DNA of 64,000 bases, from the IMG/VR virus record IMGVR_UViG_3300031146_000002, positions 177 to 64,176 of that record. The stretch is one strand, 5' to 3'. Under the pieces are notes generated by a model. That model was given only the letters and a program-made list of their open reading frames with translations, made no database searches and was not told where the DNA came from. Below, in pieces: positions 4,218 to 60,700 of this stretch. Numbering within the stretch: the first letter of the stretch is position 1; each line of letters begins with the position of its first letter. The stretch is from a virus. A program made the position numbers and the translations under genes.

Positions 4218-4282
4218 GCCCGCCACCATAGGCGGCGGTCACAGCTACCGTCACCGATCGCTTAGATCGGGCTCATGTAGTC
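4213..4282. repeat. ~70-bp direct repeat, copy 1 (copy 2 at 4988-5056)
   Basis: Two substitutions and one indel; spans a gene 3' end, a promoter element and the next ATG. Confidence 0.9.
4225..4252 (-). promoter_or_regulatory. Putative late promoter
   Basis: GACGGTAG-N14-TATGGT-N7-ATG. Confidence 0.65.
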
Positions 4283-4762
4283 GAACCTGCCGACGATCGC
4301 GTCCCCGGGGGCGAACGGGAAGGGCACGTTGTTGCGGATGTATGCCGCTCCTGAGCCGTCAAGGAGCGACAGGTCCGCCACCGCGACTCCACCGGGGCCA
4401 CCGCTCCCCGTGTTGCGCGTCAGGAAGCCGAGCACAGACCCCCCTGTGTTGGAGTCGTCGCGGACGGTGAACTGACCCCAGATGTCGGCTCGCCCGGTCG
4501 ATCCGCCGGAGAAGAACCCGGTTGCCGGCGTGGGAAGGGTCACCCTGTATATGCCGTCGCCAGGATTGGCGCCTTGACCGAAGAGGATGTATAGCTCGCC
4601 CCACACTCTCCCTGTGATCGGGTCACGCCACCAGCGCCCGCCCGTGCTTCCAGCGCCGATCGACGGGTTAGTGATCGACGCCAGCAACTGCGGCTGGTAG
4701 GTCTGCATCTGGATGGCGTGATGCTCGACCCGGATCTTGCCGAGGGGGCCTGGCTGAGTCAT
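4262..4762 (-). CDS. Small tail-associated beta protein, paralog A
   Basis: Shares GRWWRDPITGRVWG and FDYMSPI with 5036-5539; follows tail proteins. Confidence 0.7.
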   Translation of the reverse strand: MTQPGPLGKIRVEHHAIQMQTYQPQLLASITNPSIGAGSTGGRWWRDPITGRVWGELYILFGQGANPGDGIYRVTLPTPATGFFSGGSTGRADIWGQFTVRDDSNTGGSVLGFLTRNTGSGGPGGVAVADLSLLDGSGAAYIRNNVPFPFAPGDAIVGRFDYMSPI

Positions 4763-4799
4763 GGCAGCCTTTCGTGACTTCCCGCGGAATGGATAGAGG

Positions 4800-4827
4800 A
4801 TGTTGTCAAGCGGTCCGGACTAATGTC
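4800..4827 (-). promoter_or_regulatory. Putative late promoter
   Basis: GACATTAG-N14-CAACAT upstream of the gene starting at 4762. Confidence 0.55.
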
Positions 4828-4833
4828 GCGGCG

Positions 4834-4992
4834 TCAGGGCGGGCCCGGATAGCAGAACGTGGCCGCGACCGCATCGCCATTCGTCCATGCAAACGGGTAG
4901 GCGTGGGTGACGTTCGTGGCGGTGCCGTCGAACAGAGACAGGAATGCGAGAGCGACCCCACCGGGCCCTGCGTTGACCGTGTTGCGAGCCAT
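4834..4992 (-). CDS. 52-aa ORF matching the C-terminal third of the flanking paralogs (not in ORF track)
   Basis: MARNTVNAGPGGVALAFLSLFDGTATNVTHAYPFAWTNGDAVAATFCYPGPP aligns to TRNT..GGPGGVA...LS.LDG......P......DAI...F.Y of both neighbours. Confidence 0.6.
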   Translation of the reverse strand: MARNTVNAGPGGVALAFLSLFDGTATNVTHAYPFAWTNGDAVAATFCYPGPP

Positions 4993-5056
4993 GCCCGCAA
5001 CCATAGGCGGCGGTAACAGCTACCGTCACCGATCGCTAGATCGGGCTCATGTAGTC
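4988..5056. repeat. ~70-bp direct repeat, copy 2
   Basis: Near-identical to 4213-4282. Confidence 0.9.
5000..5027 (-). promoter_or_regulatory. Putative late promoter
   Basis: GACGGTAG-N14-TATGGT-N7-ATG (4992). Confidence 0.6.
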
Positions 5057-5539
5057 AAACTTGCCGGCGATCGCATCGCGTGGGGCCCACGTCCATGGTG
5101 TCTGGTGGTCCACTCGGACGTTCGTTCCGTCCAAGATTGACAGGTGGACCAGTGCCACACCGCCGGGGCCACCGGCCTGGGTGTTGCGGGTCAAGTACCC
5201 TCGGCGAGACGCCGACGAGGCGGAGTCGTCGCGGATGCTGAACCAGCCCAGAATGTCGGCCTGGCCAACGGATGTCGACTCGAAGCCATCGAACGCCGTG
5301 GGCATGGTGACGCTGTATATGCCGTTACCGGCAGAAGTGCCCGCGGTGCCGAACTTAATAATGAAGTCGCCCCACACCCGTCCGGTGATGGGGTCACGCC
5401 ACCAGCGGCCGCGTACTAGTGGATCGGTACCCAGCGTTGGGTTGGTGTTCTCGGCAAGCAGCTGCGGCGTGTACGACTGAACCTTGATGACATGCTGCTC
5501 GGCGCGAATCCTGCCGAGGGGCATGACGGGCAGTGTCAC
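5036..5539 (-). CDS. Small tail-associated beta protein, paralog B
   Basis: Paralog of 4262-4762; GGAGG RBS. Confidence 0.7.
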   Translation of the reverse strand: MTLPVMPLGRIRAEQHVIKVQSYTPQLLAENTNPTLGTDPLVRGRWWRDPITGRVWGDFIIKFGTAGTSAGNGIYSVTMPTAFDGFESTSVGQADILGWFSIRDDSASSASRRGYLTRNTQAGGPGGVALVHLSILDGTNVRVDHQTPWTWAPRDAIAGKFDYMSPI

Positions 5540-5621
5540 GGGACAGACCTCCCGATCGCAGTTTAGGTCGATCGGGATGGTGCCGAGCGATGCGCGTTAC
5601 CGTCCCAGGGTCAGATCCGAG

Positions 5622-15784: not shown

Positions 15785-18703
15785 CTATCCTGCCCTCCTC
15801 ATCTCCCAGGCGATTCGGGCTCCCAGCATCTCTAGTTGCTCCTCCGCGGTCAGGTGTGACCCGTGGAGGTGGATGTTGGTCTGGTGACCGGCTTGTGTCG
15901 CGGTCGGTGCCATCGCGAACGGTCCGGTCAGCGTCGCCGCGAGGTTCTCGATCGTCGCGGCCAGCCCGCTTCGGCTGTCCTCGAGGCCGAGCCGGAGGCC
16001 AGCGCCGATCTGCTGGCCGAACTCCCTGAACAATCGGCTCGGCGAGCGGATGCCGAACACGGCCCGAACCTGAGATGCCAGGCCGTTGGCGATGCTCTTG
16101 CCGGTCGACCAGAGGTCCTGGGCTCGCGACCACAGGCCGCTGATGAGCGACGAGATGATGTTTCGGCCGATGGTCCAGAACGAGCTGGCCAGGCTCGCCG
16201 CGGCGCCACGCAGCGAGTCGAACAGCGACCGGCCCACCTGGAGCGCTGTCGCAAGGCCACTCCCCAGCCCGCTTGCCAGCCGGTCCACCCAGTCACGGAC
16301 GGTCCGGAGCGCGCTTCCGACCCCGCCGAGCAGCGTGTTGATCAAGTTGAGGGCGCCGTTGACAACATCGAGGGCGGTCTTGAGCGCCCAGAATGCGAAG
16401 GCGAGTGGACCAACCTTCACGTTGGCTTCCAGCATCAGCTGGATGAGCAGGAGGAAGGCGTCCAGCAGGCTGTACCCGGACGGGCCCTTCTCGGTGAATG
16501 CGGTGAGGAGTCTGGTGACGCTGACGATCAGCTGGACGATCGTCGGCAGAAGCTGGAGGAACGCCGGCAGCAGCTGCCTGACCGCCACGATGGCGAGTTC
16601 GGCGACCATGGGCGACAGCGGCACCAGCGCCAAGGCCAGGTCAAGGAACGCCTGGAAGAGCGTCGGGATGTGAGGGATCAGCTGCCGCACGGCGTCCAAG
16701 AGCGCCCCACCGACCTCACGGGCGAGTTCGAAGAAGAGCGGCACCAGTGGGCGCGCGGCGGCGATGAACTGCGGCAGGTACCGAAGAAGCTGGCTGATCA
16801 GCGTCCGGGTGAGCTCGAACAGCAGCGGCTGCAGCTCCTCGAACGCGCCGATCAGTTCGCGGGCGGCCTGCTGAGCGAACGCCGTCACCAGCGGGATCAG
16901 CGGCCGTAGAGCCGCCGATACCTGGCGCATCATCTCCGCGAACTGGTCGAGAGCCCGCGATTCCAGGAGCGCCTTCAGTAGCTCGTCGAGGAATGCCGAT
17001 GCCAGCGCGGAGACGAGCTCAATGACTGGCGCGAGGAGCATCGCGAGGGCGGCGAGGCTCTGCGCCAGCCCGACCAGCAGAACCGCGGCGAGCTTGCCGA
17101 TCACGGGCAGCAGAGGCGCCAGCGCCCGCATGATTTCGCCGAGGGCCCGACCGACAGGCTCGGCGGCCGGTACGAGTGCGTAGAGCGCGTCAGCGACGGC
17201 CTCGGCGAAAACGACGAGCCCGGGAAGGGCAGACTTGAGGAGCTCGACGAGGATCACCGCGATCGGCCGCAAGATCTCGCCGAAGACCGCGCCCAGCTGG
17301 CCGATCGCGGGCGCCATTTCCTGCAGCCCGCGACCCAGGATGTCGAGGACAGAGACCAGGGCTGGCGCGACGCCGGTAACAAGGGAGGCGATCGCCGGCG
17401 CGAGCCCGTTGGCGATCGCGTTGACGAGCGCGATGAAGACAGGGGTGGCCTGCTCGCCGAGGTCCTCGAGCGCGTAGAAGAAGTTGAGGAGTGCCGCCTG
17501 GCCCTCGACGGAGTTGGCCCAGTTGGCGAAGGCGCCAGTGATGGCCACGAGAGCGCCGAGCGCACCGCCCGGTCCGGCCGCCTTGTTGGCCGCCTCCAGG
17601 ATCGCGCCGACGCCGCTGGCGACGTTGCCGATGACCCGGCCGAGCTGCTTGAGGACCTCGAGGCCCTCCTCGATCCACTCCCGCAGCTGGCCGGTTTCCT
17701 TGGCGTGGCGGACGAACTCGGCCGCCGCCTGGGCTGCCAGATGGAAGCCCATGGTTGAGTCGGCCAGGATGTCCCCGCCGACCTCGGAGATGTCGAGGAA
17801 GATCTGCAGCATCGGGCCGAGGCCCGACAGCAGGTTGTCGACGAGCTCTTTGCCGTTGATGAGGACGCGGAAGAACGAGTTCTTGGTGGCCTCGGTGTCG
17901 ATGTACTCGAGGGCTCGGCGGAGGCGGTAGTTGATGACCCCGGCGGTGGCCGTGAGAGCAATCTGCAGCTCCGGCAGGAACGAGGTGGCGAGCCTGGCGA
18001 CGCTCTCACCGAGGCCGTTGAAGAGCCGCTCTTGGACGTCAAGCCTCAGCTGGGTGAAGGCCGGAGCGAGTTCGGAGATGCGCAGCACGAAATCGCGCGC
18101 AGCAGGGGAGAGCCGCTCGAGGGCCTCCGCCAGGCGCTCCTGCTCGGCGGCGGACAGCTTCCCGCCGGCGGCCAAGGTGGCGTAGGCGGAGAAGGTCTCC
18201 TTGAGCGCATCGCCGACACCCTGGACACCGACCGCCAGCGTGGCGAACAGGCCAATGACCGTCGTCAGAGCGGCGGGAAGAATCCCGAGCGCCTGCCAAG
18301 CCGGGATGACGGCGCCGGCGAAGGCGAGCAGGTTCGCTGCACTCGCCGCGAGCCAGGTCACCAGCACGGACAGGCCGGAGACGATGCCTCCGATGAGGAC
18401 TGTCCGGGTCAGGACGCCGCCGGCCGTTCGGAGCGCGCTCAGGAGACCATTGATGGCTGTGCGGGCCGGGTTGGTGTCAGCGTCGACGCGGATGGTTGCC
18501 CGGGTGGTACGTGAGACGGTCTGGGCAGCGGCGTACGCCTCGGACAGGAACGGTGACGTGTTGGCCCTGGTGTCGATGACCGCGCGAATCAGGGCCGCCG
18601 CGCGGTTGACACCGCGGCGCAGCTCCGCGGCGAATCCGCGGAGCTGCGCAACGACCGAGATTTCTAGCCTGCCGGCTTCCTCGGTGTCACCCGGCTGGGT
18701 CAC
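15785..18703 (-). CDS. Tape measure protein
   Basis: 972 aa, Ala/Leu-rich helical; SPSRLFREFG near the C-terminus; follows chaperones. Confidence 0.92.
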   Translation of the reverse strand: MTQPGDTEEAGRLEISVVAQLRGFAAELRRGVNRAAALIRAVIDTRANTSPFLSEAYAAAQTVSRTTRATIRVDADTNPARTAINGLLSALRTAGGVLTRTVLIGGIVSGLSVLVTWLAASAANLLAFAGAVIPAWQALGILPAALTTVIGLFATLAVGVQGVGDALKETFSAYATLAAGGKLSAAEQERLAEALERLSPAARDFVLRISELAPAFTQLRLDVQERLFNGLGESVARLATSFLPELQIALTATAGVINYRLRRALEYIDTEATKNSFFRVLINGKELVDNLLSGLGPMLQIFLDISEVGGDILADSTMGFHLAAQAAAEFVRHAKETGQLREWIEEGLEVLKQLGRVIGNVASGVGAILEAANKAAGPGGALGALVAITGAFANWANSVEGQAALLNFFYALEDLGEQATPVFIALVNAIANGLAPAIASLVTGVAPALVSVLDILGRGLQEMAPAIGQLGAVFGEILRPIAVILVELLKSALPGLVVFAEAVADALYALVPAAEPVGRALGEIMRALAPLLPVIGKLAAVLLVGLAQSLAALAMLLAPVIELVSALASAFLDELLKALLESRALDQFAEMMRQVSAALRPLIPLVTAFAQQAARELIGAFEELQPLLFELTRTLISQLLRYLPQFIAAARPLVPLFFELAREVGGALLDAVRQLIPHIPTLFQAFLDLALALVPLSPMVAELAIVAVRQLLPAFLQLLPTIVQLIVSVTRLLTAFTEKGPSGYSLLDAFLLLIQLMLEANVKVGPLAFAFWALKTALDVVNGALNLINTLLGGVGSALRTVRDWVDRLASGLGSGLATALQVGRSLFDSLRGAAASLASSFWTIGRNIISSLISGLWSRAQDLWSTGKSIANGLASQVRAVFGIRSPSRLFREFGQQIGAGLRLGLEDSRSGLAATIENLAATLTGPFAMAPTATQAGHQTNIHLHGSHLTAEEQLEMLGARIAWEMRRAG

Positions 18704-20113: not shown

Positions 20114-20152
20114 GGTGATGGCTGCCTCTCATCTGGTTGGCGGACGAGAGGC

Positions 20153-20180
20153 ACGCTAAGGACGCGCCCAGGCTTACGTC
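20153..20180 (-). promoter_or_regulatory. Putative late promoter (tail tube)
   Basis: GACGTAAG-N14-TAGCGT; box lies in the loop of a 10-bp hairpin. Confidence 0.6.
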
Positions 20181-20205
20181 CTGGGCGCGGGATGCTCCAC
20201 TGTAG

Positions 20206-21896: not shown

Positions 21897-21924
21897 ACGG
21901 TACTGGCGGGGCGGGGGTTGCGTA
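21897..21924 (-). promoter_or_regulatory. Putative late promoter
   Basis: TACGCAAC-N14-TACCGT-N7-ATG. Confidence 0.6.
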
Positions 21925-23435: not shown

Positions 23436-23463
23436 ACGGTATGGGCGTTGGAGGCCTTGCGTA
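23436..23463 (-). promoter_or_regulatory. Putative late promoter
   Basis: TACGCAAG-N14-TACCGT, then GGAGG RBS. Confidence 0.6.
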
Positions 23464-23760: not shown

Positions 23761-24039
23761 TTATGGCGTAGCGCCGGCCGGCACCTCGGTGTCGAGGTCG
23801 GGCACCTGGGGTGGTGTGCCCGTGATGGTGTGCGGGCCGGGGATCATGTGGAGCGCGAGCAGGTACAGCCCGACCTCATCGTCGGGGCTGGTCGGCTGGT
23901 AGGCGGGCCCGGTTGGCGTGACCGGCACAGGCCGGCCAGCGAACGGCAGCACGTCGATGGTCGTGGTGGGATCGGCCGAGACAGACTTGCCGTCGTGGGC
24001 CATCCACCGACCCTCGCTGCCCTCTACACGCCAAGCCAT
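23761..24039 (-). CDS. Hypothetical protein, tandem paralog 1
   Basis: Paralog of 23464-23742. Confidence 0.75.
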   Translation of the reverse strand: MAWRVEGSEGRWMAHDGKSVSADPTTTIDVLPFAGRPVPVTPTGPAYQPTSPDDEVGLYLLALHMIPGPHTITGTPPQVPDLDTEVPAGATP

Positions 24040-24131: not shown

Positions 24132-24335
24132 ATGAGCCGATACATCCCACCCGGCGGGGGACCGACCCGCGTCGACCCAGGCGACCTCACACCACGGCAG
24201 CGGCGGGCCCTCCGGCGCCTCGCCCGCCGTCCGCAGCGACCGACCGCTCGGAAGACGATGCGGGGCGACGCCGACCGTACGTCGCCCCGCACCCTAGACC
24301 CCCCCGGGCTGGCCGAGCACGATACGGACCGGTGA
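24132..24335 (+). CDS. Small basic hypothetical protein
   Basis: GGAG RBS before ATG; 67 aa. Confidence 0.4.
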   Translation: MSRYIPPGGGPTRVDPGDLTPRQRRALRRLARRPQRPTARKTMRGDADRTSPRTLDPPGLAEHDTDR

Positions 24336-24375
24336 CAGGTTGTGTCCTGTCGTACAGGCGATCTAGCCTGCGCTT

Positions 24376-26314: not shown

Positions 26315-26342
26315 ACCGTACCCGCCCCCGAGGTCTACGGTC
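26315..26342 (-). promoter_or_regulatory. Putative late promoter
   Basis: GACCGTAG-N14-TACGGT-N7-ATG. Confidence 0.65.
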
Positions 26343-26993: not shown

Positions 26994-27021
26994 AAGGTAG
27001 GGCCGGCGGGCCGCTAACGGC
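26994..27021 (-). promoter_or_regulatory. Putative late promoter
   Basis: GCCGTTAG-N14-TACCTT. Confidence 0.55.
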
Positions 27022-27985
27022 CATACGCCGGGTTCAGCAGCGCACCAGCCACTGACTGGCACACGCCGATGCCGTAGGCGAAGTCCTCTTCCCACGACGA
27101 CCGTGGTCTGAACCGCACCAGCACCGCCATGGCCCACGTCTTGGAGACCGCCATGCAGTTGACCCGCCACAGCCCGTCGCGCACGTAGTGGTTCCACCCG
27201 TTCTTGATCGCCACCCGGCTCCGCCCCGGCTCGGGCAGGACGTCACGGATGCCCCAGTCACCGATCCGCACGGTCCGCATCGCATCGAGCAGCCACGGAG
27301 TCCACTGTGGCCCTGCGGCTCGCCCGTCGGCGATGCAGTCCGCCACCCGGGCGGCGTCCGCGGCGGACACGCTGACGAACGACCAGCCGCCACCGGGGGT
27401 GGTGTCGGTCAGGCCGCAGGTGGCGATCATCCGACGGAAGGTCTCGTCACCACCGAGCCGCCGGTACAGGGTCTGGGCCGCCGCGTTGTCGCTGTCCCGG
27501 ATCATCGTGTCCAGCAGCTCCCCGTCGCCCTCGGTCAGGTGCGGGGTACGCGCCAGGTAATCGGCCGCCAGCCACGCCTTGAGCATCGACGCCGGCCACG
27601 TCGTCTCGTGCATGGTGGGCGACCCCCACAGCTGGCCGGTGGCCCGGTCGAGGACCGCGTACCCGACCCACACCCCGTCGTCGATGCGCACGGCCGCGGG
27701 CCGGAACCGGCCGGTCGGGGTCGGCGGAGCGAACGGCGACTCCGCGACCGGAGCGGAGAGCGCTACCTGCTCCTGAGCAATGGTGGCGGGGTTCTCCTGA
27801 GAGAGCGTGGCCGGGGTCGCGACGAGCGACAGCACCGAGAGCCAGACGACGACGCGACGCCACCATCTGCGGATGTTCGGGTCCGACACGCCGCGGATGA
27901 TGTCGAGGCCGAGATGCTTGCGTCCCCAATCCGCCCCAGCTAGCGTCTCAATCACGTGGGGCTCCATTGAGGGAACTGCATCCAA
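27014..27985 (-). CDS. Secreted or membrane-anchored serine hydrolase, class A beta-lactamase/DD-peptidase fold
   Basis: SxxK (ASMLK), SDN and K(T/N)G (IKNGW) motifs; N-terminal hydrophobic segment; start uncertain. Confidence 0.85.
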   Translation of the reverse strand: MDAVPSMEPHVIETLAGADWGRKHLGLDIIRGVSDPNIRRWWRRVVVWLSVLSLVATPATLSQENPATIAQEQVALSAPVAESPFAPPTPTGRFRPAAVRIDDGVWVGYAVLDRATGQLWGSPTMHETTWPASMLKAWLAADYLARTPHLTEGDGELLDTMIRDSDNAAAQTLYRRLGGDETFRRMIATCGLTDTTPGGGWSFVSVSAADAARVADCIADGRAAGPQWTPWLLDAMRTVRIGDWGIRDVLPEPGRSRVAIKNGWNHYVRDGLWRVNCMAVSKTWAMAVLVRFRPRSSWEEDFAYGIGVCQSVAGALLNPAYGR

Positions 27986-28100: not shown

Positions 28101-29417
28101 CTACTCCTCCAGGCTGCCCTTCACGAACGCCTCGGGCCGGTCCACCGTCAGGCAGATCCGCTCGTAGGCGCGGACCGTCACGACGCGCCGCTCGAAGTTG
28201 TCCTGGTTCTCGGTCGAGAAGTCGACCTGGGCGCCCCGCCGCTCGAACAGCTGGGCCCCCATGCCGAAGGCGCCGACGAGGTAGGTGCCCTGGGCGATCG
28301 CCGTGGTCGGAATGACCCGAGTCCGCCACACCCGGAGGGTGGAGCCGTCCTGGATCGAGGTGACCAGCGTCAGCCGGCCCATGTCGTCCTTCTCGAGCTC
28401 CATCTCCTCCCAGTCGAGCGGGTTCACGACCACGCCCGTGGCCTGGTACTCGGCCAGCTGGACGCGGGTGAGAGCCCGCCGGATGGTGGAGGTCATCGGG
28501 TCACCGGGGCGGCTGGCCCGGTTGAAGGTCTGCACCCCCGGCGTCTGGAAGATGCCGCGGATGTTGGGGTCCTGGCCGTCGCCGTGCAGGATGTCGTAGT
28601 CCTCGGCGAGGCGGAGGCCCTCGCGCATCTTGCCGTCGATCACGTTCCGCAGCCGGGGCTCGTCCTCGAGCACCGTCTGGTGGATGTAGTCGATGTGCCG
28701 AATCTCCGAGATCGGGTACGACACGTTCTCGAAGGTGATCTTGGAGCGCGGCGCCTTCCCGAACGTGTCGGTGTCGCCACCGGTCGGCGCGCTCTCCCCG
28801 TCGGCCGCGGTGCGCTCACGCACACCCCGGGCCGCGTTGACGAAGCCCGTCTGCCGGATGCCCCAGATCACCGCCGCCGTCGTCTGCTCCGGCGGGAACA
28901 GCTCCCGCAGGTGGTACGACCGGTCCGGCTGGACGACGATCGGCCGCTGCATGTCGCTGCCGAACGCCTGCCGGGTCAGCGTGCCGGCCGCCAGGCTCCA
29001 GACGTCCTTGGCCTCCATGCCGGCGGTGCTGTCCCACCACGAGGCGTCCTTGATCTCGATCGAGACCGAGTGACGCGACCGGTCGGCGCGCCACGCCTTC
29101 CACGCCTCGCTCTCGATGACGGCCTGGCCGATCGACTTGACCGACGGCCCGGCGGGCATGTACGGGTTGGCGTCCACCCCGCTGCCCTCGGGGGCGTCCA
29201 GGTAGGACTTGACGCGGTTGCCGGTCTCGATGGCCTTGCACGCCGCCTCGATCTGCTGGATCTCGTCCAGCAGCGCCTTCATGGCCTCGGACTGGCCCTG
29301 CGGCAGGACAACGGTGTCGCCCTTGACCTGGATCTGCTGGGTGATGCTGTCCAGCTCGGCTTGCTTCTGGTCAAGGACCTTGCGCAGGTCCTTGAGCGTG
29401 TCGGTTGCGGTAGGCAC
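28101..29417 (-). CDS. Major capsid protein, HK97 fold
   Basis: Coiled-coil delta domain; AEDYDILHGDG, VVVNPLDW, NFERRVVTVRAYER; GAGGAG RBS before GTG. Confidence 0.93.
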   Translation of the reverse strand: MPTATDTLKDLRKVLDQKQAELDSITQQIQVKGDTVVLPQGQSEAMKALLDEIQQIEAACKAIETGNRVKSYLDAPEGSGVDANPYMPAGPSVKSIGQAVIESEAWKAWRADRSRHSVSIEIKDASWWDSTAGMEAKDVWSLAAGTLTRQAFGSDMQRPIVVQPDRSYHLRELFPPEQTTAAVIWGIRQTGFVNAARGVRERTAADGESAPTGGDTDTFGKAPRSKITFENVSYPISEIRHIDYIHQTVLEDEPRLRNVIDGKMREGLRLAEDYDILHGDGQDPNIRGIFQTPGVQTFNRASRPGDPMTSTIRRALTRVQLAEYQATGVVVNPLDWEEMELEKDDMGRLTLVTSIQDGSTLRVWRTRVIPTTAIAQGTYLVGAFGMGAQLFERRGAQVDFSTENQDNFERRVVTVRAYERICLTVDRPEAFVKGSLEE

Positions 29418-29563
29418 GGTGGTGCTCCTCAGCTCCTCATGCGAACACAGACCCGAATGGATGGGTCGATGACGAGTGGGATGTGCCTGGGTTGCTGTTC
29501 GCCGCGCCGCCTGGCCAACACCGGGACGCCCTCGCAGCATCCGCAGCCCGAGGCTGATGCGGC

Positions 29564-29591
29564 ACGCTAGAGGGCGCCCAATGTTTGTGTC
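29564..29591 (-). promoter_or_regulatory. Putative late promoter (capsid)
   Basis: GACACAAA-N14-TAGCGT. Confidence 0.55.
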
Positions 29592-31492: not shown

Positions 31493-31520
31493 ATCGTGAC
31501 CCCGGCCGTCGGCTTACGTC
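31493..31520 (-). promoter_or_regulatory. Putative late promoter (protease)
   Basis: GACGTAAG-N14-CACGAT. Confidence 0.65.
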
Positions 31521-34108: not shown

Positions 34109-34136
34109 ACCGTAGGCGCCGGTGGATGCTTGTGTC
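34109..34136 (-). promoter_or_regulatory. Putative late promoter (portal operon)
   Basis: GACACAAG-N14-TACGGT-N7-GTG. Confidence 0.65.
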
Positions 34137-34737: not shown

Positions 34738-35139
34738 GTGGCCGACTTCAAGTCAAAGCTGAACGCTCTCATCGGCCAGAGTCGCGATCCGAAGACCGGT
34801 CGGCCGTACACGAACGCGCAGATCGCCCGAGAGGTCGGGGTATCGGAGTCGCTCATCGGACAGCTCCGAAGCGGTGTGCGCGCCAACCCGACGTGGCAGA
34901 CCATCGACGCCCTCGCCAAGTTCTTCAAGGTCCCGGTTGGCTACTTCTTTGACGAGCAGCCGGAGCAACCGTCCACCGTGGACCCGAGAGTCCAGGAAGC
35001 CCTACGGAACGCCGGTGTGGTCCACATCGCGACGCGCGCAGCAGAGCTGTCAGAAGATGGGCTTAGAACCGTCATGGACGTCATCGACGCCGTGCTCGCC
35101 CGCGAGCAGCTGGACCGTCAATCCCGCCCGAACGGTTGA
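34738..35139 (+). CDS. XRE-family HTH regulator (EspR-like)
   Basis: YTNAQIAREVGVSESLIGQLRSG.RANPTWQTIDALAKFFKVPVGYF. Confidence 0.88.
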   Translation: MADFKSKLNALIGQSRDPKTGRPYTNAQIAREVGVSESLIGQLRSGVRANPTWQTIDALAKFFKVPVGYFFDEQPEQPSTVDPRVQEALRNAGVVHIATRAAELSEDGLRTVMDVIDAVLAREQLDRQSRPNG

Positions 35140-35205
35140 CGGGCGGCTCGCCGGGCGGGCGATTGTGGAAGCAACTAGCTAGATCACTACTCTTGCCCTT
35201 GCGCC

Positions 35206-35790
35206 GTGTCGCTGTTTGATCACGGAGGGCAGCACTTGACAGCGCATTCCCTGGATCTCCTACGCGACGTCGCGGACAGGGTGGATCTACCTGATCCGTG
35301 GAGCTTGTCCGCGTTCGCGGAGCATGTGAGCAGGCAGCGGGGCAGGCCGTTTCACCTGCTGCCGATGAGGCTGGCCGACCTTCACGGCATTTGGGTCGCC
35401 ACTGAAGAGGCCGATTACGTGGCGTACGAGGTCCAGACGTCCAAGCCGCACCAGGCCCAGATCGTTCTCCACGAGTTCGCGCACATGGTGCTCCAGCACG
35501 AGCCACGCTCGGGCGAAGATCTCGCCTTGCACCGCAGGGCCCGGCTGCCGTACCAGGCGTGGGAGGAGAGGCACGCCGAGGCTTTGGCGTCACTGCTGCT
35601 CCAACGGATCGGCCTGACCCCGGCGCCGCAACTCACCGATGTCCTGTCACCAGCAGCGGCCAGGGTCGTCGGCACTTTCATGGCAGCCGAGAAGGCCGGG
35701 AAGGAGCGAGGGCATCATGATCAAGGCGCTGCTGGCCATCTCCCTGTGGCTGTGCGTGGCCGGGCTCGGGTTCATCCTGCACACGCATAG
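35206..35790 (+). CDS. ImmA/IrrE-like metallopeptidase
   Basis: IVLHEFAHMVLQH and EERHAEALA. Confidence 0.8.
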   Translation: MSLFDHGGQHLTAHSLDLLRDVADRVDLPDPWSLSAFAEHVSRQRGRPFHLLPMRLADLHGIWVATEEADYVAYEVQTSKPHQAQIVLHEFAHMVLQHEPRSGEDLALHRRARLPYQAWEERHAEALASLLLQRIGLTPAPQLTDVLSPAAARVVGTFMAAEKAGKERGHHDQGAAGHLPVAVRGRARVHPAHA

Positions 35791-37042
35791 GCCGACATCT
35801 CGCTCCGCCACCTGGGGTCTCTTCATCATGATCAAAACGTTGGCGGTGGCGCAGACGTTGGCGATCCCGGCGGTGTACGAGTGGTTGAGCCGCGAGATAG
35901 CCCCGAACTATGGGCATCTGTGGTTCACCGTGGGATGGTCGGTAGCGCTGACCGTCGGGATGGCGGTGTTGGCCTACTGGAGGTTCGATCCCCTCCAAGC
36001 CAGGCGGCGGATCGGCACCCGCCTCGGCTGGGGCGGGGCGGCAACACTCGCTTTAGTGATCTTGTTCCTCGCGAACCCGACACCGCCAGCACCACCGTCG
36101 CTGTGGGCTGTGACCTACGCAGACGAACGGCCAGGGGTTGCCCTGTACTGGCTGATCTGGAGCGGGCTGCAGTTCGCAGCCGGATTCGAGGCTTTCCAGG
36201 GCGGCTCGCGGCTCGCCCGAGAACTCCCGAATTTCCCATATATGCGCATGGGGATGCGGGCACTGGCAGTCAGCGGCCTGCTCGCAATGATCTGGTGCTA
36301 CTTCGACGCCGTGGCCGCGCTGATGAGCCTCGCCGACGTGTCGTGGCTGGCCGACCTTCACGTCTACCGCACAGCCCGTGACTGGACCGTGAACGGCACC
36401 GTCGGTTCGATCGCCCTGTTCGTGCTGCTGCCGGTGTCGGTGGTTGTCGGGACCGCGTTGCACCAGGCGGCCCAGTCAATCCGGCTGCGTCCACTGTGGC
36501 AAGCGATCATCGACGAGTTCCCCGAGATCACGGTCGTCTCACGCCCGGCGCCGGGCTGGCTCAGGGAGTGGTGGCGGCTGGTGTGCATGCCGGACGCGCT
36601 GCCCCTGCACCGGCGGGTCATAGAGATCCGTGACGGCTACCTGCGCCTTCGGAAGTGGCTGTCGCCCGACGTGGCCGACTCAGCAGAGTTCCACGCCAAG
36701 TCCCACGGGCTCAGCGGCGAGCGGCTGTCGGCCGCGGTCGAGGCCGCCATGATCATGGTCGCGTTGGAAACCAAGAAGCGCGGCTGGGAGCCGCCCGACC
36801 TTGGCGAGATCGGCGTCGGATCGGGTGTGGACTTGTCCAGTGAGGCCAGCTGGCTGGTCAAGGTCGCCGACGCGATGCGATCACCCGCGGTGCGCGCGGC
36901 GGTTGAACACGTCCTGGCCCGCGAAGAGGAAAAGGCCAAGGGGCCCCGCAGGTGGTTGGTGGAGCAGTACGAGCGTCTCGGTGTACCAGACCCGATGAAG
37001 CAGGTCGCGCGCGGCGTCGCGTCGGTTACGCCCCGGCGATGA
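35717..37042 (+). CDS. Multi-TM protein resembling MAB_1171c family (DUF6545-like C-terminus)
   Basis: About seven TM segments; LRPLWQAI, LHRRVIEIRDGYL.LR, SEASWLVKVA. Confidence 0.75.
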   Translation: MIKALLAISLWLCVAGLGFILHTHRPTSRSATWGLFIMIKTLAVAQTLAIPAVYEWLSREIAPNYGHLWFTVGWSVALTVGMAVLAYWRFDPLQARRRIGTRLGWGGAATLALVILFLANPTPPAPPSLWAVTYADERPGVALYWLIWSGLQFAAGFEAFQGGSRLARELPNFPYMRMGMRALAVSGLLAMIWCYFDAVAALMSLADVSWLADLHVYRTARDWTVNGTVGSIALFVLLPVSVVVGTALHQAAQSIRLRPLWQAIIDEFPEITVVSRPAPGWLREWWRLVCMPDALPLHRRVIEIRDGYLRLRKWLSPDVADSAEFHAKSHGLSGERLSAAVEAAMIMVALETKKRGWEPPDLGEIGVGSGVDLSSEASWLVKVADAMRSPAVRAAVEHVLAREEEKAKGPRRWLVEQYERLGVPDPMKQVARGVASVTPRR

Positions 37043-38783
37043 TCCGCACCGTGTCAACGACCGGCTCGTAGATCGCGAGTGCGATCGCCTCCGCCCGGTC
37101 GGGCGAGGTCACTCCTCGCTTGCGCATCGACTCCTTGCTCTCGACGACCGTCTCGCCAGCGGTGTTGGTCGTCTTCCGCGGGGCGCTGATCTGGTTCGCG
37201 GTGCGCTGGTCGACGCGCAGCCGCAGCGCCGGGTCACCGTCCGGCGGCCGCGGGACCAGCAGGGACCGCAGCGCGAGCCACATCTCGTCCCGCTTCCGGG
37301 CTGGCCGGAGTGTGGCCGCGTCGGGGGTGCGACGCGGCCGCTCCCGCACGTCCACGCGCACGATCTCGGCCTCGTGCTTGCCTTCCTCCCGCCACGCCTC
37401 GAGCTGGGACGCGACCGCCCAGCCGACGCCGATGACGTCCACCTTCACCCGCACCCGGTTCTTGGACCCGAGCGCCCGGGCGATCATCTGGGCGCGGAGG
37501 ATCTGCTCGAGCACCCGACCGGACACGTCGACCGCGTTGTGGTTGGCCTCGCCGGCGGCCCGGTGCTCGATGGTCACCAGGTCGCCGATCGCCCGGGCGA
37601 CGACCACCTCGTCACCGCCGTCGGCGGCCACGTCGACCCCGAGCCGCACCCACGAGCCGGGCAGCACCAGCCACTCCCGGGTCTCCTCCGGAACCCGCAG
37701 CGACGCCAGCGTGACCGCAGCCGGGTCGTCCGGCTCGTCCATCGCGATCGCCGCGTCCACCCACGAGCTCGGGATGAGCGTGTCCGGCCCACCGTGCGGG
37801 AACTTCGCGTGGACCTTCGCGATCACGTACCGGCTGTCGGGGCCGTGGTCCGCGATCTGGGCCTGCACCCATCGCTGGTCGACCAGATGCTTCGCGAGCG
37901 AGTGGGGTGGCACGCTCGCCGGACAGGACCGGCACTGAGGTGCCTCCTCACCCGTGAACGCCGGCGTGTCGTACGCCGAGATCGGAATGACGTTGACGTC
38001 GAACGTATCGCTGGCGTCGCCGCCGGCCTTGCTGGTGCACAGCCGCTCGAACCAGGTGTCCTCGTCGTCCGTGGGCGGGTTCCCGATCGCCAGCATGTGC
38101 GAGTCGGAGCCGACCAGCAGACCAGCCAGGTTCCGGCCGATCGCCGGGGCGATACCACCGGCCTCGTCGACCACCAGCAGCAGGTGGGGCGCGTGGATAC
38201 CCTGCACCGCGTCCTCGGCGTGCGGGGCCGCGGCGATGCCGTACGCCTGCGCGTGCTGCAGCCCCATGTGGTCGGTGATCGTCCACTGCGCCTGGTCGAT
38301 CCGGCCGGGCAGCCCGGCCCGGGTGACGATCCCGCGGATCTCCGGCCAGATCTGCCGCAGCACCTGACGCCACCGCGGCGCCAACGTGACCACCTTCGCC
38401 GTGCCGGGCGGGTGGACCATGTAGAACCAGGTCGCGGCCAGCGCGGCGAGCCGCGTCTTCCCGGACCCGAAGCACGACGGGACCGCGGTGACCTGGTGCT
38501 CGGCGATCGACCGCAGCACCCGCTTCTGCACCGACCACACGGCCTCGCCCAGCACCTGCTCGACGAACCCAACCGGGTCGCCCTGCCACAGCGCGTACGG
38601 CGTGCCCATCTCCATCGCCGAGGCCTGCATGACCACGGCGATGTCGGCCTCGCTCAGCTCCTTGAGCGCACGCCACCGCTGCGCCGGCGGCGCCTCGAGC
38701 AGGGCGGAGAGCAGGTCCCGCGCGATCGCCGATCGGTCAACGACGGGTCGACGATCGCGGACAGCGGTACGTCTACCGGCCAT
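37026..38783 (-). CDS. terL: Terminase large subunit
   Basis: Walker A (SCFGSGKT), Walker B (LLVVDEA), GNP motif, nuclease GVDVA..GGDE, SPDRAEA. Confidence 0.92.
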   Translation of the reverse strand: MAGRRTAVRDRRPVVDRSAIARDLLSALLEAPPAQRWRALKELSEADIAVVMQASAMEMGTPYALWQGDPVGFVEQVLGEAVWSVQKRVLRSIAEHQVTAVPSCFGSGKTRLAALAATWFYMVHPPGTAKVVTLAPRWRQVLRQIWPEIRGIVTRAGLPGRIDQAQWTITDHMGLQHAQAYGIAAAPHAEDAVQGIHAPHLLLVVDEAGGIAPAIGRNLAGLLVGSDSHMLAIGNPPTDDEDTWFERLCTSKAGGDASDTFDVNVIPISAYDTPAFTGEEAPQCRSCPASVPPHSLAKHLVDQRWVQAQIADHGPDSRYVIAKVHAKFPHGGPDTLIPSSWVDAAIAMDEPDDPAAVTLASLRVPEETREWLVLPGSWVRLGVDVAADGGDEVVVARAIGDLVTIEHRAAGEANHNAVDVSGRVLEQILRAQMIARALGSKNRVRVKVDVIGVGWAVASQLEAWREEGKHEAEIVRVDVRERPRRTPDAATLRPARKRDEMWLALRSLLVPRPPDGDPALRLRVDQRTANQISAPRKTTNTAGETVVESKESMRKRGVTSPDRAEAIALAIYEPVVDTVRIIAGA

Positions 38784-38820: not shown

Positions 38821-38848
38821 ATCATGCCCGGGGTGGCCGGATAGCGTC
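38821..38848 (-). promoter_or_regulatory. Putative late promoter (terminase)
   Basis: GACGCTAT-N14-CATGAT-N6-GTG of a 7-codon mini-ORF. Confidence 0.5.
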
Positions 38849-38868
38849 CTACGTGGTATCATTTGTGT

Positions 38869-38889
38869 GTGCGGGCGAGCGACCCGCAC
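38869..38889 (+). promoter_or_regulatory. Leader hairpin element with TATCAT -10 six nt upstream
   Basis: GGTATCAT-N6-GTGCGGG-CGAGCGA-CCCGCAC. Confidence 0.75.
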
Positions 38890-38905
38890 GGAGGGAGTTG
38901 GAAAG

Positions 38906-42442: not shown

Positions 42443-42470
42443 AGGGTGCCCGCCCCGACCCGCTACCGTC
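42443..42470 (-). promoter_or_regulatory. Putative late promoter
   Basis: GACGGTAG-N14-CACCCT-N6-GTG. Confidence 0.6.
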
Positions 42471-43152: not shown

Positions 43153-43180
43153 ATGCTCGCCCGGCCGTGCCCGTAACGTC
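43153..43180 (-). promoter_or_regulatory. Putative late promoter
   Basis: GACGTTAC-N14-GAGCAT-N7-GTG. Confidence 0.65.
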
Positions 43181-46814: not shown

Positions 46815-46842
46815 ATGCTCCCGGCTGGGTGGCCCTAACGTC
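46815..46842 (-). promoter_or_regulatory. Putative late promoter
   Basis: GACGTTAG-N14-GAGCAT-N8-GTG. Confidence 0.6.
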
Positions 46843-47872: not shown

Positions 47873-47900
47873 ATCGTCCCGGCCCAGACGGTCTACTGTC
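47873..47900 (-). promoter_or_regulatory. Putative late promoter
   Basis: GACAGTAG-N14-GACGAT-N7-GTG. Confidence 0.6.
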
Positions 47901-52519: not shown

Positions 52520-52547
52520 ATGGTGCCCCCCGTGCAGGGCTTGTGGC
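52520..52547 (-). promoter_or_regulatory. Putative late promoter
   Basis: GCCACAAG-N14-CACCAT-N7-GTG. Confidence 0.6.
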
Positions 52548-52772: not shown

Positions 52773-52850
52773 CTTGTGCCTCCCTTCCCTGCACAGTCTG
52801 CCCTGAGATGTCGGTACGCGCGCCACATCAAGATCTGGTATCATCAATGT

Positions 52851-52871
52851 GTGCGGGCGAGCGACCCGCAT
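52851..52871 (+). promoter_or_regulatory. Leader hairpin element with TATCAT six nt upstream
   Basis: GGTATCAT-N6-GTGCGGG-CGAGCGA-CCCGCAT. Confidence 0.75.
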
Positions 52872-52891
52872 GAGGATGAAGTGAGGAACCG

Positions 52892-54699: not shown

Positions 54700-54727
54700 A
54701 TCGTGCATGCCCGAAAGGGCTTGTGAC
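54700..54727 (-). promoter_or_regulatory. Putative late promoter
   Basis: GTCACAAG-N14-CACGAT-N6-GTG. Confidence 0.6.
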
Positions 54728-55572: not shown

Positions 55573-55600
55573 ATCATGCCCGCCTGGACCGCCTTACGGC
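55573..55600 (-). promoter_or_regulatory. Putative late promoter
   Basis: GCCGTAAG-N14-CATGAT-N6-GTG. Confidence 0.65.
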
Positions 55601-55861: not shown

Positions 55862-55892
55862 GTCCTAAGTGTACCAGTTGCATCGATGGGCT

Positions 55893-57719: not shown

Positions 57720-57730
57720 GGCCGGATGAT
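57616..57730. repeat. 115-bp direct repeat, copy 1 (copy 2 at 58761-58875), encoding the tag
   Basis: Four mismatches, all synonymous in the tag. Confidence 0.9.
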
Positions 57731-57753
57731 CCGCTGGCCGCTCCGTTTACGTC
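57726..57753 (-). promoter_or_regulatory. Putative late promoter
   Basis: GACGTAAA-N14-GATCAT-N6-GTG. Confidence 0.65.
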
Positions 57754-58864: not shown

Positions 58865-58875
58865 GGCCGGATGAT
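58761..58875. repeat. 115-bp direct repeat, copy 2
   Basis: Matches 57616-57730. Confidence 0.9.
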
Positions 58876-58898
58876 GCCGACCAGAGGGGACTTGCGTA
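58871..58898 (-). promoter_or_regulatory. Putative late promoter
   Basis: TACGCAAG-N14-CATCAT-N6-GTG. Confidence 0.65.
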
Positions 58899-58909: not shown

Positions 58910-58939
58910 AGGCCCCCGACCTTTGTGGATCGGGGGCCT
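58910..58939. terminator. Terminator hairpin after ArdC-like gene
   Basis: AGGCCCCCGA/TCGGGGGCCT. Confidence 0.6.
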
Positions 58940-58945
58940 GGGGCG

Positions 58946-59347
58946 TCAGGCGGCCTTCCGCTCGGCGATCTCGTCCGTCTGGGAGATGTCGAACACGTAG
59001 GCCACCCGGTAGCGCATGCGCCCTTCCTCGACGACGTTCCCCTCATCGTCGGTGACGGGCTCCGTCTGACCGGCGGGGGCGAAGATCAGGATGCCCTGCT
59101 CACCCTTGCGGACCTGCCGACCCCGCTTCTGCCAGGCCTTGTACCCGTCGACGTCGGTGGCGGTCGGCATCTGCATCGCGATCAGCAGAGCGTTCCGCAT
59201 CGAGTAGCCGTCGAACCGGGCGGTGATGACCGCGATCTCGGCCTCGCTCAGCTCCGCCTCGTACTGCTCGAGCCTTGCCTTGAGGTCGGCGATCTGCTGG
59301 CGCCGGGCGGCGATGTCGGCTGCGGTCTTGCGGCGACGGTAGCTCAT
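58946..59347 (-). CDS. Stand-alone ArdC-like N-terminal ssDNA-binding domain protein
   Basis: YSMRNALLI, GYKAWQKRGRQVRKGE.GI.I, VFDISQT. Confidence 0.88.
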   Translation of the reverse strand: MSYRRRKTAADIAARRQQIADLKARLEQYEAELSEAEIAVITARFDGYSMRNALLIAMQMPTATDVDGYKAWQKRGRQVRKGEQGILIFAPAGQTEPVTDDEGNVVEEGRMRYRVAYVFDISQTDEIAERKAA

Positions 59348-59365
59348 CGTGGCGATCTCCCTCCT

Positions 59366-59386
59366 GTGCGGGTCGCTCACCCGCAC
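59366..59386 (-). promoter_or_regulatory. Leader hairpin element with TATCAT six nt upstream
   Basis: GGTATCAT-N6-GTGCGGG-TGAGCGA-CCCGCAC. Confidence 0.75.
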
Positions 59387-59427
59387 ACACATATGATACC
59401 ACGATGATCGTCAGTGGCGCAAGATCA

Positions 59428-59781
59428 CTAGCCGGCGTAGTAGGCGTTCGGCTGGCCCGCCCTGGCCGGGTCCTCCTCACGGCCGCTCCGCTTCGCGGGC
59501 TTCTTCGCCGGTGCCTTCGCCCCGGAGCTCGTGTCCGCGGTACGGCCTTCGTCGGCCGGCTGATTCCTGGGCTCCTCGCCGGCGTTCTGCTGCGCTGGCT
59601 GGCCACCTCGAGGTCGGGTCCGCGGCTTCGGGTTGCGGATCCAGTCGGGTAGGTCGTCGACGGTCTCGGCCTCGTCCGCGGCCCGGAGGAGCTCGTCGAA
59701 CTCGGGGTCGCCGGGCAGCAGCTGCATGACGTTGACGGCGCGGGCGCACGCTCGGCTGATCTCGGGGTCATCCTCAGCCAC
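59428..59781 (-). CDS. Small protein downstream of ART-like effector
   Basis: GGAGG RBS; acidic N-terminal half, low-complexity tail. Confidence 0.65.
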   Translation of the reverse strand: MAEDDPEISRACARAVNVMQLLPGDPEFDELLRAADEAETVDDLPDWIRNPKPRTRPRGGQPAQQNAGEEPRNQPADEGRTADTSSGAKAPAKKPAKRSGREEDPARAGQPNAYYAG

Positions 59782-59840
59782 GGCTGGCCTCCTTCACGCT
59801 TGTCGATCGGTCTGGCATCGTAACCAACGCCGTACCGCCG

Positions 59841-60665
59841 TTAGGCCTTCTCAACGATCACCGCGGTCCGGTTGAAGATCACGATGTAGTCGCGGCCCTC
59901 GACGTGCATCGCGTCGTAGCCGAGCCGCGCAGCCAGCGCCCCGGGGTCGATGAACACCCCCGTCTGCTCGTACTCCTCCCGAGCCAGCCGGGCCATCTCC
60001 AGCCCCGATGCGATCACAGCGTCGCGGTGCAGGACCATGCGGATCATCACCCCGCCCATGTCGGGCTGGGCCCACGCACTGACCTTCTCCCGGTTCATGC
60101 CGGTGTAGATGCCGTTGCCGTGGGTGCCCTCGCCGTAGTAGGCCGGGCCAGTGCGGAACTGCTCGGCCTGCTGCAGAGAGATCTTCCGCTTCTCCCGGCG
60201 GGATAGGGTCTGCCCATCCCGGCCGCGCTGGTGGATACCGCGCCACAGCTCGATGCCGCCGGCCTCGATCTCCGCATCCAGGTCTGCTGCCGTGCCCACC
60301 CGCGGCGGGCCGTCGAAACCCTGCAGGTGCGCGTACGCAGCCACCAGCCTGGAGTTGGGCGTCGAGTGCTCCTTGACCGCCTCGAGGGCCTCGGTGATGT
60401 CCACGTCCCGGCCAAGGTCTCGGCCACGAACCATGATGTGAGTCGTCACCCTAGGCTGCTGCTGGCCCGACGGCCTGCCAGGCTGCTGCTGTCCTGGGAC
60501 CGGCCCAGGGCCTGACGGGCTCGCCGATCGTCGGCCACGGCCGCCACTGCTCCGCGGGGCATCGGGGACGTCGATGAACCGTCCGTCGGGCCCGCGGGGG
60601 TGCAGCAGGGCGTTCCACGGCCGGCGGATCTTCACCTCGTATCGGGGCACCAGGATCGCCGGCAT
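59841..60665 (-). CDS. Tagged effector with probable ART-fold domain
   Basis: MPAILVPRYEVK...WNALLHPRGPDGRF; ELWRG, YYGEGTHGNGIY, LGYDAM, YIVIFNR. Confidence 0.65.
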   Translation of the reverse strand: MPAILVPRYEVKIRRPWNALLHPRGPDGRFIDVPDAPRSSGGRGRRSASPSGPGPVPGQQQPGRPSGQQQPRVTTHIMVRGRDLGRDVDITEALEAVKEHSTPNSRLVAAYAHLQGFDGPPRVGTAADLDAEIEAGGIELWRGIHQRGRDGQTLSRREKRKISLQQAEQFRTGPAYYGEGTHGNGIYTGMNREKVSAWAQPDMGGVMIRMVLHRDAVIASGLEMARLAREEYEQTGVFIDPGALAARLGYDAMHVEGRDYIVIFNRTAVIVEKA

Positions 60666-60672
60666 GCCGGCC

Positions 60673-60700
60673 ATCATCCGCACCAGCCCCGGCTAAGGTC
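60673..60700 (-). promoter_or_regulatory. Putative late promoter
   Basis: GACCTTAG-N14-GATGAT-N7-ATG. Confidence 0.6.

Follow-up and report, generated by a model that had tools for sequence, protein, structure and literature searches.

A recurrent box-and-hexamer element in a high-GC actinobacterial phage as a candidate factor-dependent, mostly leaderless promoter class

Does the two-part sequence element that recurs ahead of the genes of one high-GC phage represent a promoter class of its own, and if so, what reads it? The question is raised by positions 177 to 64,176 of the IMG/VR virus record IMGVR_UViG_3300031146_000002, a stretch of 64,000 nt (henceforth the window) in which a short box, 14 nt of spacer, and a -10-like hexamer are found upstream of 11 genes whose products share an N-terminal tag (henceforth tagged genes) as well as upstream of virion genes. 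The window is nearly the whole of the 64,188-bp record (G000), which is linear, has a GC content of about 70%, and is 51% complete by the CheckV estimate; its genes lie nearly all on the minus strand, i.e., the coding strand. The same phage was recovered via exact-protein look-ups as a 126,536-bp JGI record that is circularly permuted relative to G000, and statements on the whole genome rest on about 123 kb of this 126.5-kb record. At a probability of roughly 60%, the copies of the element (class I) are genuine promoters of a single phage-clade-specific class, which would combine a -10 of the host sigma factor with a box read by a dedicated factor. That the promoters fire, that the box needs a factor, which factor this is, and when it acts we infer from the sequence.

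The strict class I pattern was defined as KACNNWAG-N14-NANNNT (box, 14 nt, hexamer) and matched 17 times in the window, of which 16 matches were on the minus strand; 100 dinucleotide shuffles gave an expectation of 0.73 ± 0.79. The A (position 2) and T (position 6) of the hexamer were part of this definition, and their occurrence together with a box at a distance of exactly 14 nt far exceeds the chance level. A hexamer follows at exactly this distance in 16 of 27 coding-strand boxes, compared to one match each for N13 and N12 and none for N15 and N16, so that both the element and its exact spacer, as proposed by a first-pass annotation of the window, are real. The 11 uncoupled boxes on the coding strand stand against 15 boxes on the other strand, i.e., the box alone is not enriched. 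A position weight matrix built from the 16 strict copies returned, at a threshold of at least 14 bits, 22 sites on the coding strand, none on the other strand, and 0.27 in shuffles. Background frequencies were also taken from real sequence, namely a 6.9-Mb Micromonospora genome and a set of 51 other actinophage loci of high GC content (1.7 Mb when both strands are counted); both sets yielded 0.26 matches per 64-kb strand against the 16 found here (P(≥16) ~1e-23). A chance origin of class I is excluded. Matches with one mismatch were not significant in bulk (51 versus 33.5 expected), and this bulk count was not used as evidence; 11 such copies were kept only where they lie at gene starts with matching geometry, giving 27 curated copies in the window, to which the earlier count of 22 was slightly low.

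Each of the 16 strict copies on the coding strand is followed, after 6-42 nt, by an open reading frame (ORF) start supported by GC content at third codon positions. An ATG or GTG occurs 6-8 nt past the hexamer in 17 of the 27 copies, which retains the geometry described previously and raises the count from 15; “leaderless” denotes this distance in the following and is read from the sequence alone. The remaining copies have leaders of 23-58 nt with a Shine-Dalgarno (SD) sequence, except for the copy at 24346, which has no gene start nearby. The box has the consensus gGAC(G/A)nWAG and would span about -34 to -27 if the transcription start site (TSS) is the start codon. It ends in AG in 20 copies and reads GACAC in 4, its WAG is as invariant as its GAC, and the two positions before GAC are not T-rich. 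The hexamers have the A and T of a canonical -10 at positions 2 and 6 and are not accompanied by a TTGACA-like -35, and a scan of 40 kb for canonical TTGACA-N16-18-TATAAT promoters gave 0 matches. Only 10 of the 27 copies have a T at -12, and a TG extension precedes the hexamer in just 1. Promoters of extracytoplasmic function (ECF) sigma factors have a -35 ending in AAC and a -10 of CGT(C/T) type, which class I does not match, as most boxes end in AG and the -10 reads nAnnnT. An apparent dyad between box and TAnnGT hexamers (ACnnTAG / CTAnnGT) was dropped as a coincidence, except for the palindromic portal-operon promoter of two relatives described below, as the flanks do not extend it and C precedes the hexamer in 4 of 9 cases, about the base frequency.

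The element is conserved in relatives whose orthologous proteins are only 40-60% identical to those of G000. Two of these relatives, an 86.7-kb contig of Micromonospora sp. NPDC006766 (C21) and an 87.3-kb IMG/VR record (G003), each share 63% terminase identity with G000, a third (G002) is more distant at 46%, and among named phages, Streptomyces phage Gilgamesh comes closest (48%). Class I counts on the coding and the other strand were 18 and 0 in G000, 12 and 1 in G003, and 3 and 1 in G002; in C21, the coding strand carries 11-13 copies. The box variant of C21 and G003 is GACGYTAA, compared to GACGnWAG in G000. Copies with leaderless geometry were also present in six IMG/VR fragments at 53-57% terminase identity, and relatives at 49% or less had none. 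At the junctions preceding the portal operon and the protease gene (G000, C21, and G003), box and hexamer are kept in register and the spacers and flanks differ; the orthologous tail tube gene of C21 likewise has a class I copy ahead of it. Within the window, box and hexamer at the tagged genes appear to be held by selection and not by recent copying, because the spacers and upstream flanks of the 11 tagged-gene copies are unrelated; the copies ahead of the starts at 58864 and 57719 are identical in sequence from the hexamer onward. The 6.9-Mb Micromonospora genome contained 55 matches versus 74 for the reversed control, i.e., no host excess outside the phage contig, and the motif was absent in 79 other phage loci encoding WhiB. 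These counts confirm that class I, as read from sequence, is specific to a phage clade and not a host-wide promoter type. Naive discovery by k-mer and spacing recovered the motif in G000 and C21 and nothing clear in G002 or in L031, another phage with a WhiB-helix-turn-helix (HTH) fusion; this result neither supports nor refutes the link to that protein discussed below. As a separate observation, the portal-operon promoter is a near-perfect palindrome in C21 (40260-40288) and G003 (63155-63183), where the pattern matches both strands, and the G000 copy at 34136 is not palindromic.

Each of the 11 tagged genes is preceded by a class I copy, as the first-pass annotation had stated, with 6 strict copies and 5 of one mismatch (all curated copies of the window are on the minus strand). 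Strict copies at 60673..60700, 58871..58898, 47873..47900, and 42443..42470 precede the leaderless starts ATG 60665 (274 aa), GTG 58864 (368 aa), GTG 47865 (266 aa), and GTG 42436 (866 aa), respectively; a further strict copy at 46815..46842 has GTG 46806, of a gene with a SAP domain, 8 nt past its hexamer, and one at 23436..23463 has a 25-nt leader with GGAGG ahead of GTG 23410 (493 aa). The copies with one mismatch are all leaderless and lie at 57726..57753 (GACGTAAA; GTG 57719, a GNAT protein of 608 aa), 55573..55600 (GTG 55566, 275 aa), 54700..54727 (GTCACAAG; GTG 54693, HTH plus GNAT), 52520..52547 (GTG 52512, MerR-type HTH), and 43153..43180 (GTG 43145, 218 aa). The starts at 60665, 54693, 52512, and 42436, which had been selected earlier with the help of the element, fit the 6-8-nt geometry. 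One more leaderless copy with one mismatch at 21897..21924 (ATG 21889, 127 aa) precedes a product with a tag-like N-terminus.

Copies ahead of terminase, portal operon, protease, capsid, head-tail, tail tube, and holin-like genes were also found as described before. The terminase large subunit gene (37026-38783) starts at ATG 38783 after a 37-nt leader and a one-mismatch copy at 38821..38848, and the major capsid gene of HK97 type (28101-29540) at ATG 29540 after a 23-nt leader and a one-mismatch copy at 29564..29591 (GACACAAA). Strict copies lie at 34109..34136, leaderless for GTG 34101 (74 aa) and followed by the portal-MuF fusion gene (31514-33877); at 31493..31520, with a 33-nt leader for the S78-type prohead protease (GTG 31459); at 26315..26342, leaderless for ATG 26307 of a 200-aa gene of the head-tail region; and at 20153..20180, with a 39-nt leader for the tail tube gene (ATG 20113). 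A perfect inverted repeat of 9 bp (cgcgcccag / ctgggcgcg; 20150-20195, minus strand) has the box of the latter in its loop and could be a terminator or attenuator of the upstream gene overlapping the promoter; a terminator scan gave marginal enrichment in one 20-kb segment (11 versus 5.3 ± 2.1) and 5 versus 4.1 in the other. In the holin-like region, strict leaderless copies at 4225..4252 and 3971..3998 precede membrane proteins of 85 aa (ATG 4217) and 144 aa (ATG 3963), and the leaderless strict copy at 5000..5027 (ATG 4992, 52 aa) is a near-duplicate of the former. Nearby are a one-mismatch copy at 5577..5604 (37-nt leader, GTG 5539, 167 aa) and a strict copy at 4800..4827 (37-nt leader, ATG 4762, 166 aa), the sole one with TGn before the hexamer. 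The one-mismatch copy at 24319..24346 lies just past a plus-strand HNH gene, with the next minus-strand gene starting at 24039.

The regulon had been regarded as late, a label that is too narrow; neither is it confined to virion genes, as class I copies also precede a beta-lactamase-like gene (strict, 27897..27924, leaderless GTG 27889), RecT (strict, 2652..2679, ATG 2609 after a 42-nt leader with the GTGAGCGAC hairpin), an exonuclease-WhiB operon (one mismatch, GACGCAAA, 400..427, 58-nt hairpin leader, ATG 341 of a PDDEXK exonuclease gene), a methylase gene, and a lysin-like gene. The genome holds at least 35 copies, about one for every two or three genes. Copies outside the window precede a twelfth tagged gene and its adjoining 119-aa gene, a peptidoglycan-binding lysin-like gene, a TIG-domain gene, an intein-bearing methylase gene, a small gene near the start of the gene array, and two genes past the replication genes. 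No copies were found in about 12 kb of small genes upstream of the window's first tagged gene. The hexamers of the tagged genes are of the form SAnnAT (S = C or G) and those of many structural genes TAnnGT; a T at -12 is found in 9 of the 16 other copies but in 1 of the 11 at tagged genes (Fisher p=0.018), which hints that tagged and other copies may differ in strength or timing. The shared promoter class had been presented as independent evidence that tagged effectors are made together with virion proteins; this evidence is weak, because the class is broad, the -10 subtypes differ, and promoter and tag are contiguous. For the tagged proteins this calls for caution, as a shared class by itself is not proof of co-expression with virion proteins.

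Two of the genes behind class I copies deserve mention in their own right. The twelfth tagged gene (L023 10577-12181, minus strand) encodes 534 aa with an ADP-ribosyltransferase exotoxin-type Pfam domain and the N-terminal tag of the others; its leaderless class I promoter reads GACGTAAG ... CACGAT, followed by 6 nt and GTG. The beta-lactamase-family protein (27014-27889, minus strand; Pfam Beta-lactamase2), encoded between capsid and head-tail genes, resembles a moron, and its N-terminus is Arg-rich and then hydrophobic, similar to a signal peptide.

A second type of putative promoter (class II) is a cassette of an extended -10 (TGGTATCAT), a hairpin (GTGCGGG-YGAGCGA-CCCGCAC), GGAGGGAG as a strong SD, and a start codon. 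In the window, it is found on the minus strand at 59393..59401 (cassette 59393-59440, including GGAGGGAG) ahead of the ArdC-N gene (58946-59392), and on the plus strand, with TGGTATCAT and the hairpin leader, at 38854..38862 (cassette 38854-38900), divergent from the terminase promoter, and at 52836..52844 (cassette 52836-52885). A similar minus-strand cassette with TGCTACGGT and the hairpin leader lies at 63276..63284 (cassette 63240-63284), and further extended -10 sequences of the minus strand at 55868..55876 (TGGTACACT, 6 nt before ATG 55861, 82 aa) and 2955..2963 (TGCTACAGT, about 280 nt ahead of the class I copy that precedes RecT). Seven more class II copies lie outside the window (L025 590, 2841, and 3418; L023 8994, 8505, and 8041; L024 16005) in clusters of small genes that have few or no class I copies. 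In C21, TGCTACACT with the identical loop occurs in 8 promoter copies, one of them directly ahead of RecT, and the hairpins number 20 on the coding strand and 1 on the other; in G003, TGCTACACT and the hairpin also precede RecT. Extended -10 promoters function without a -35. Since they do, class II is likely a natural host-only early class, which would make class I a later, factor-dependent tier and supports the core of the first-pass proposal. The hairpin with its invariant loop YGAGCGA(C) also follows some class I promoters (2679 and 427), and such conservation suggests a protein-binding or stabilising element of the 5' untranslated region. Just downstream of the RecT extended -10, a box-like GGACGTTAT without a class I hexamer at 14 nt was observed in C21 (about 18100-18150, minus strand) and G003 (L082 7142-7200, plus strand), and may serve autoregulation of the operon containing the WhiB-HTH gene.

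In the mechanism we propose, host RNA polymerase with its principal sigma factor would read nAnnnT as the -10 and start transcription 6-8 nt past the hexamer, in the 17 leaderless copies of the window at the A or G of the start codon, so that leaderless mRNAs would result; the other copies would give leaders of 23-58 nt with an SD. The box, 14 bp upstream of the hexamer, would replace the canonical -35 and would be read in fixed register with sigma by a dedicated factor, most likely phage-encoded. The best candidate for it is the WhiB-HTH protein, whose WhiB-like (Wbl) domain would dock on region 4 of sigma-A and whose C-terminal HTH would read the box. Class II would work with host polymerase alone and serve ArdC and the early small-gene clusters, and class I would be the later tier for tagged, structural, and lysis genes, RecT, the exonuclease-WhiB operon, and others. 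Of the first-pass proposal, i.e., a non-canonical box recognised by host polymerase together with a phage activator or an alternative sigma factor, the non-canonical nature of the box stands and is joined by clade specificity and a second class of probable host-only type; a phage-encoded reader is probable.

No activator had been identified in the window, and the WhiB-HTH gene indeed lies just beyond the end of the contig. The PDDEXK exonuclease gene that begins at ATG 341 and leaves the window encodes 422 aa, and its stop overlaps the start of the 169-aa WhiB-HTH gene, 1.5 kb beyond the low end of the window; longer contigs of the same phage (L010 10908-12682) contain the rest of the exonuclease gene, the WhiB-HTH fusion, an HTH_36 protein, and an IstB-like ATPase in this order. 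Pfam bit scores for the protein were 91.6 (Whib), 28.9 (HTH_23), and 25.2 (HTH_7), all above cut-off, and the Wbl features C33, C56, C59, C65, the aromatic patch F41 and F42, and W79-G80-G81 (GxWGG) are invariant in the alignment. In the structure model, the C-terminal HTH (about residues 105-169) had a pLDDT (predicted local distance difference test) of 83-90, and the WhiB part was poor (below 50). A reading of the HTH as a sigma region 4-like domain was rejected: it has a generic three-helix fold, sigma-4 chains are among many tied matches (Z 5.3-6.8, too low to point beyond a generally shared helix arrangement), and there is no sequence match. Orthologues are fused in C21 and G003 and split into an overlapping pair of a WhiB and an HTH-like gene in G004, and all three carry the motif; of the motif-negative relatives, G002 has no WhiB and G009-G013 have a stand-alone WhiB only. 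Wbl proteins, those of phages included, bind sigma-A region 4 via the aromatic patch, but do not, for the most part, carry a DNA-binding domain (PMC13013590). Next to sigma-A region 4, WhiB and the WhiA HTH jointly recognise GACAC (PMC10243135). Among the proteins of the phage, WhiB-HTH is the only one with an established route to polymerase.

We consider it probable that the reader of the box, of whatever kind, is phage-encoded; that it is WhiB-HTH we put forward tentatively, and as a rather unlikely proposition. Slightly more doubtful still is the full picture of a one-polypeptide sigma appropriator, in which the Wbl domain would clamp sigma-A region 4 and the HTH would read the box at 35 or more mostly leaderless promoters of a second temporal tier. 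Several points weigh against these proposals. The co-occurrence of fusion and motif is confined to one clade, so its cases are not phylogenetically independent, and any clade-specific gene would match. The WhiB-HTH operon itself is located behind class I copies in G000 (427 and 2679), and its activation would need the extended -10 at 2963, basal firing, or feedback. No comparable two-part motif was found in 20 kb of L031. Fusions of the WhiB-HTH type also occur in cluster F mycobacteriophages and in Gordonia phages, for neither of which a promoter class of this kind is known to have been reported. The known DNA-reading partners of Wbl proteins (the AT-hook of WhiB7 and WhiA) bind ahead of a -35 that stays intact, and both their spacing and their orientation vary; here, the box is in the place of the -35. 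The early two-fifths of the gene array (about 36 kb) contain five class I copies (record positions 93911, 82466, 69246, 68631, and 59464). Alternative regulators are candidates as well, i.e., other phage HTH proteins (the genome also encodes a 162-aa HTH_23 protein) or a 142-aa Cys/His-rich Zn-ribbon-like protein (34149-34577, minus strand), which is encoded directly upstream of the portal operon and has a 44% identical orthologue in C21. Pfam and PHROGs gave nothing for this and other conserved unknowns (3047-3532, among others), and Atlas gave weak Zn-ribbon and Ogr/Delta leads for 34149-34577 (Ogr/Delta score 0.83).

The rigid 14-bp spacing is typical of one protein on both elements, as with alternative sigma factors, and it raises the possibility that a sigma factor of this kind, or an activator, belongs to the host and controls a small regulon there, the promoter type of which the phage clade copied. 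About 46 sigma genes were counted in the Micromonospora genome, and a phage source is not in evidence: no gene with sigma-70 region 2 (Sigma70_r2) was found in G000, in C21, or in the Pfam lists of the 123 kb, Sigma70_r4_2 gave only sub-threshold HTH matches, and no RNA polymerase gene is recognisable in the genome. We nevertheless judge this explanation improbable. The host-like genome shows no excess of the motif (55 versus 74 in the control, a comparison that would miss host regulons below a size of about 10 genes), the A(-11) and T(-7) of the -10 are the signature of group 1 and not of ECF or group 3 sigma factors, and the motif sharply tracks phage phylogeny, being present at 53% terminase identity and above and absent at 49% and below.

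Somewhat less probable again is that the box is an operator, with promoters firing from the -10 alone and a phage repressor silencing the copies in lysogeny, similar to phage L5. The phage is probably temperate, because it encodes a tyrosine integrase and Xre-type HTH proteins; the sites are many, asymmetric, and of a single orientation relative to transcription, and the box-like GGACGTTAT downstream of the RecT extended -10 in C21 and G003 would suit an operator. However, the box is not enriched by itself, whereas stoperators of L5 occur independently of promoters, and most hexamers lack both T at -12 and a TG extension and are expected to be weak unaided. The operator reading is compatible with an activator that also uses the box. 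Least likely are ordinary principal-sigma promoters. In these, GAC would be what is left of a -35 (nnGACn, spacer of 18 nt), and the remaining box positions would have been kept by descent from duplications. GAC does equal positions 3-5 of TTGACA at an allowed spacer length, and 5027/4252 and 58898/57753 are clear duplicates. Yet WAG is as invariant as GAC, the preceding T positions are not conserved, box and register were kept where spacers and flanks had fully diverged, even between phages with orthologues of 40-60% identity, and the principal sigma factor would be expected to accept a spacer variation of ±1 nt, which is not seen.

Two further arrangements of the genome were noted. A divergent arm of about 13 kb (L021 5602-18442; record 95.6-108.8 kb), in which no class I copies were found, encodes an Xre/DUF5753 protein, a major facilitator superfamily (MFS) transporter, an FtsK/SpoIIIE-like ATPase, DUF3560, and an intein-interrupted ParA-type ATPase, which suggests plasmid-like maintenance (a phage-plasmid) or a lysogeny module. 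Genes for an Xre-type HTH protein and a DUF6545 membrane protein at 34738-37042 (plus strand), a pair that is also present in C21, split the packaging module between terminase and portal, and the promoter at 34136 may restart transcription downstream of them.

The timing of gene expression in actinobacteriophages is little understood, as is the function of the WhiB-like genes that are so common in them. The locus offers a high-copy, rigid promoter class, a contrasting, probably host-only class, conservation within a clade, and a specific candidate reader; the Micromonospora strain that carries the C21 relative has an NPDC collection number and may still be a culturable source. If WhiB-HTH were the appropriator, a phage Wbl protein would for the first time have a defined DNA target and a promoter class assigned to it. 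A possible use of class I promoters is as leaderless expression parts, compact and orthogonal, in high-GC hosts.

Known systems resemble class I in different respects. The stoperators of L5 (cluster A) are likewise dozens of asymmetric sites oriented along transcription and distributed genome-wide, but sites enriched independently would be expected of them, whereas the class I box is enriched only together with a -10-like hexamer and a gene start (11 uncoupled boxes versus 15 on the other strand). As proposed here, P2 Ogr/Delta and RinA/ArpU are phage factors that turn on structural genes from non-canonical promoters; they usually control one or few late operons, whereas class I is found at every second or third gene. 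In actinobacterial promoters of leaderless mRNAs, transcription reportedly begins at the start codon itself, 6-7 nt past a TANNNT hexamer. The 17 leaderless class I copies are similar to these in the distance from hexamer to start (6-8 nt), in having ATG or GTG as the first codon, and in lacking an SD; they differ in that many are without T at -12 and in the additional conserved box upstream at fixed spacing. WhiB7 with its AT-hook and the WhiA/WhiB pair combine, as is proposed for the candidate, a Wbl domain on sigma-A region 4 with a DNA-reading module (PMC10243135, PMC13013590). The GACAC of WhiA/WhiB, the GACA of TTGACA, and the class I box all contain GAC, but class I does not have the features of a WhiA/WhiB-dependent promoter, as GACAC is present in 4 of 27 copies and the position overlaps the -35 at fixed spacing; furthermore, the putative DNA reader is here fused to the Wbl domain, or encoded adjacent to it in G004. 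Literature searches for a comparable promoter in Streptomyces or Micromonospora phages returned nothing relevant. The consensus and architecture of class I are thus new relative to the searchable literature, and the kind is known, i.e., phage-specific, factor-dependent promoters in which the -35 is replaced. The middle promoters of T4 (MotA box, read through AsiA/MotA) share with class I a -10 of host type, an asymmetric box near -30 that replaces the -35, and fixed spacing, and they are likewise present in many copies per phage as a tier after host-only early promoters, which is proposed here. The location of the box at about -34 to -27 with invariant spacing corresponds to this geometry and is a resemblance, not a claim of membership. 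Neither MotA nor AsiA families were among the Pfam matches of the 123 kb, in which no search was aimed at either. Class I differs from the T4 promoters in its unrelated box sequence, in having one polypeptide, WhiB-HTH, as the candidate reader, in its host, which would be a high-GC actinobacterium, and in its mostly leaderless geometry; if the link to WhiB-HTH is true, it would explain how sequence specificity is acquired by a Wbl protein and provide an actinobacterial parallel to the sigma appropriation of T4.

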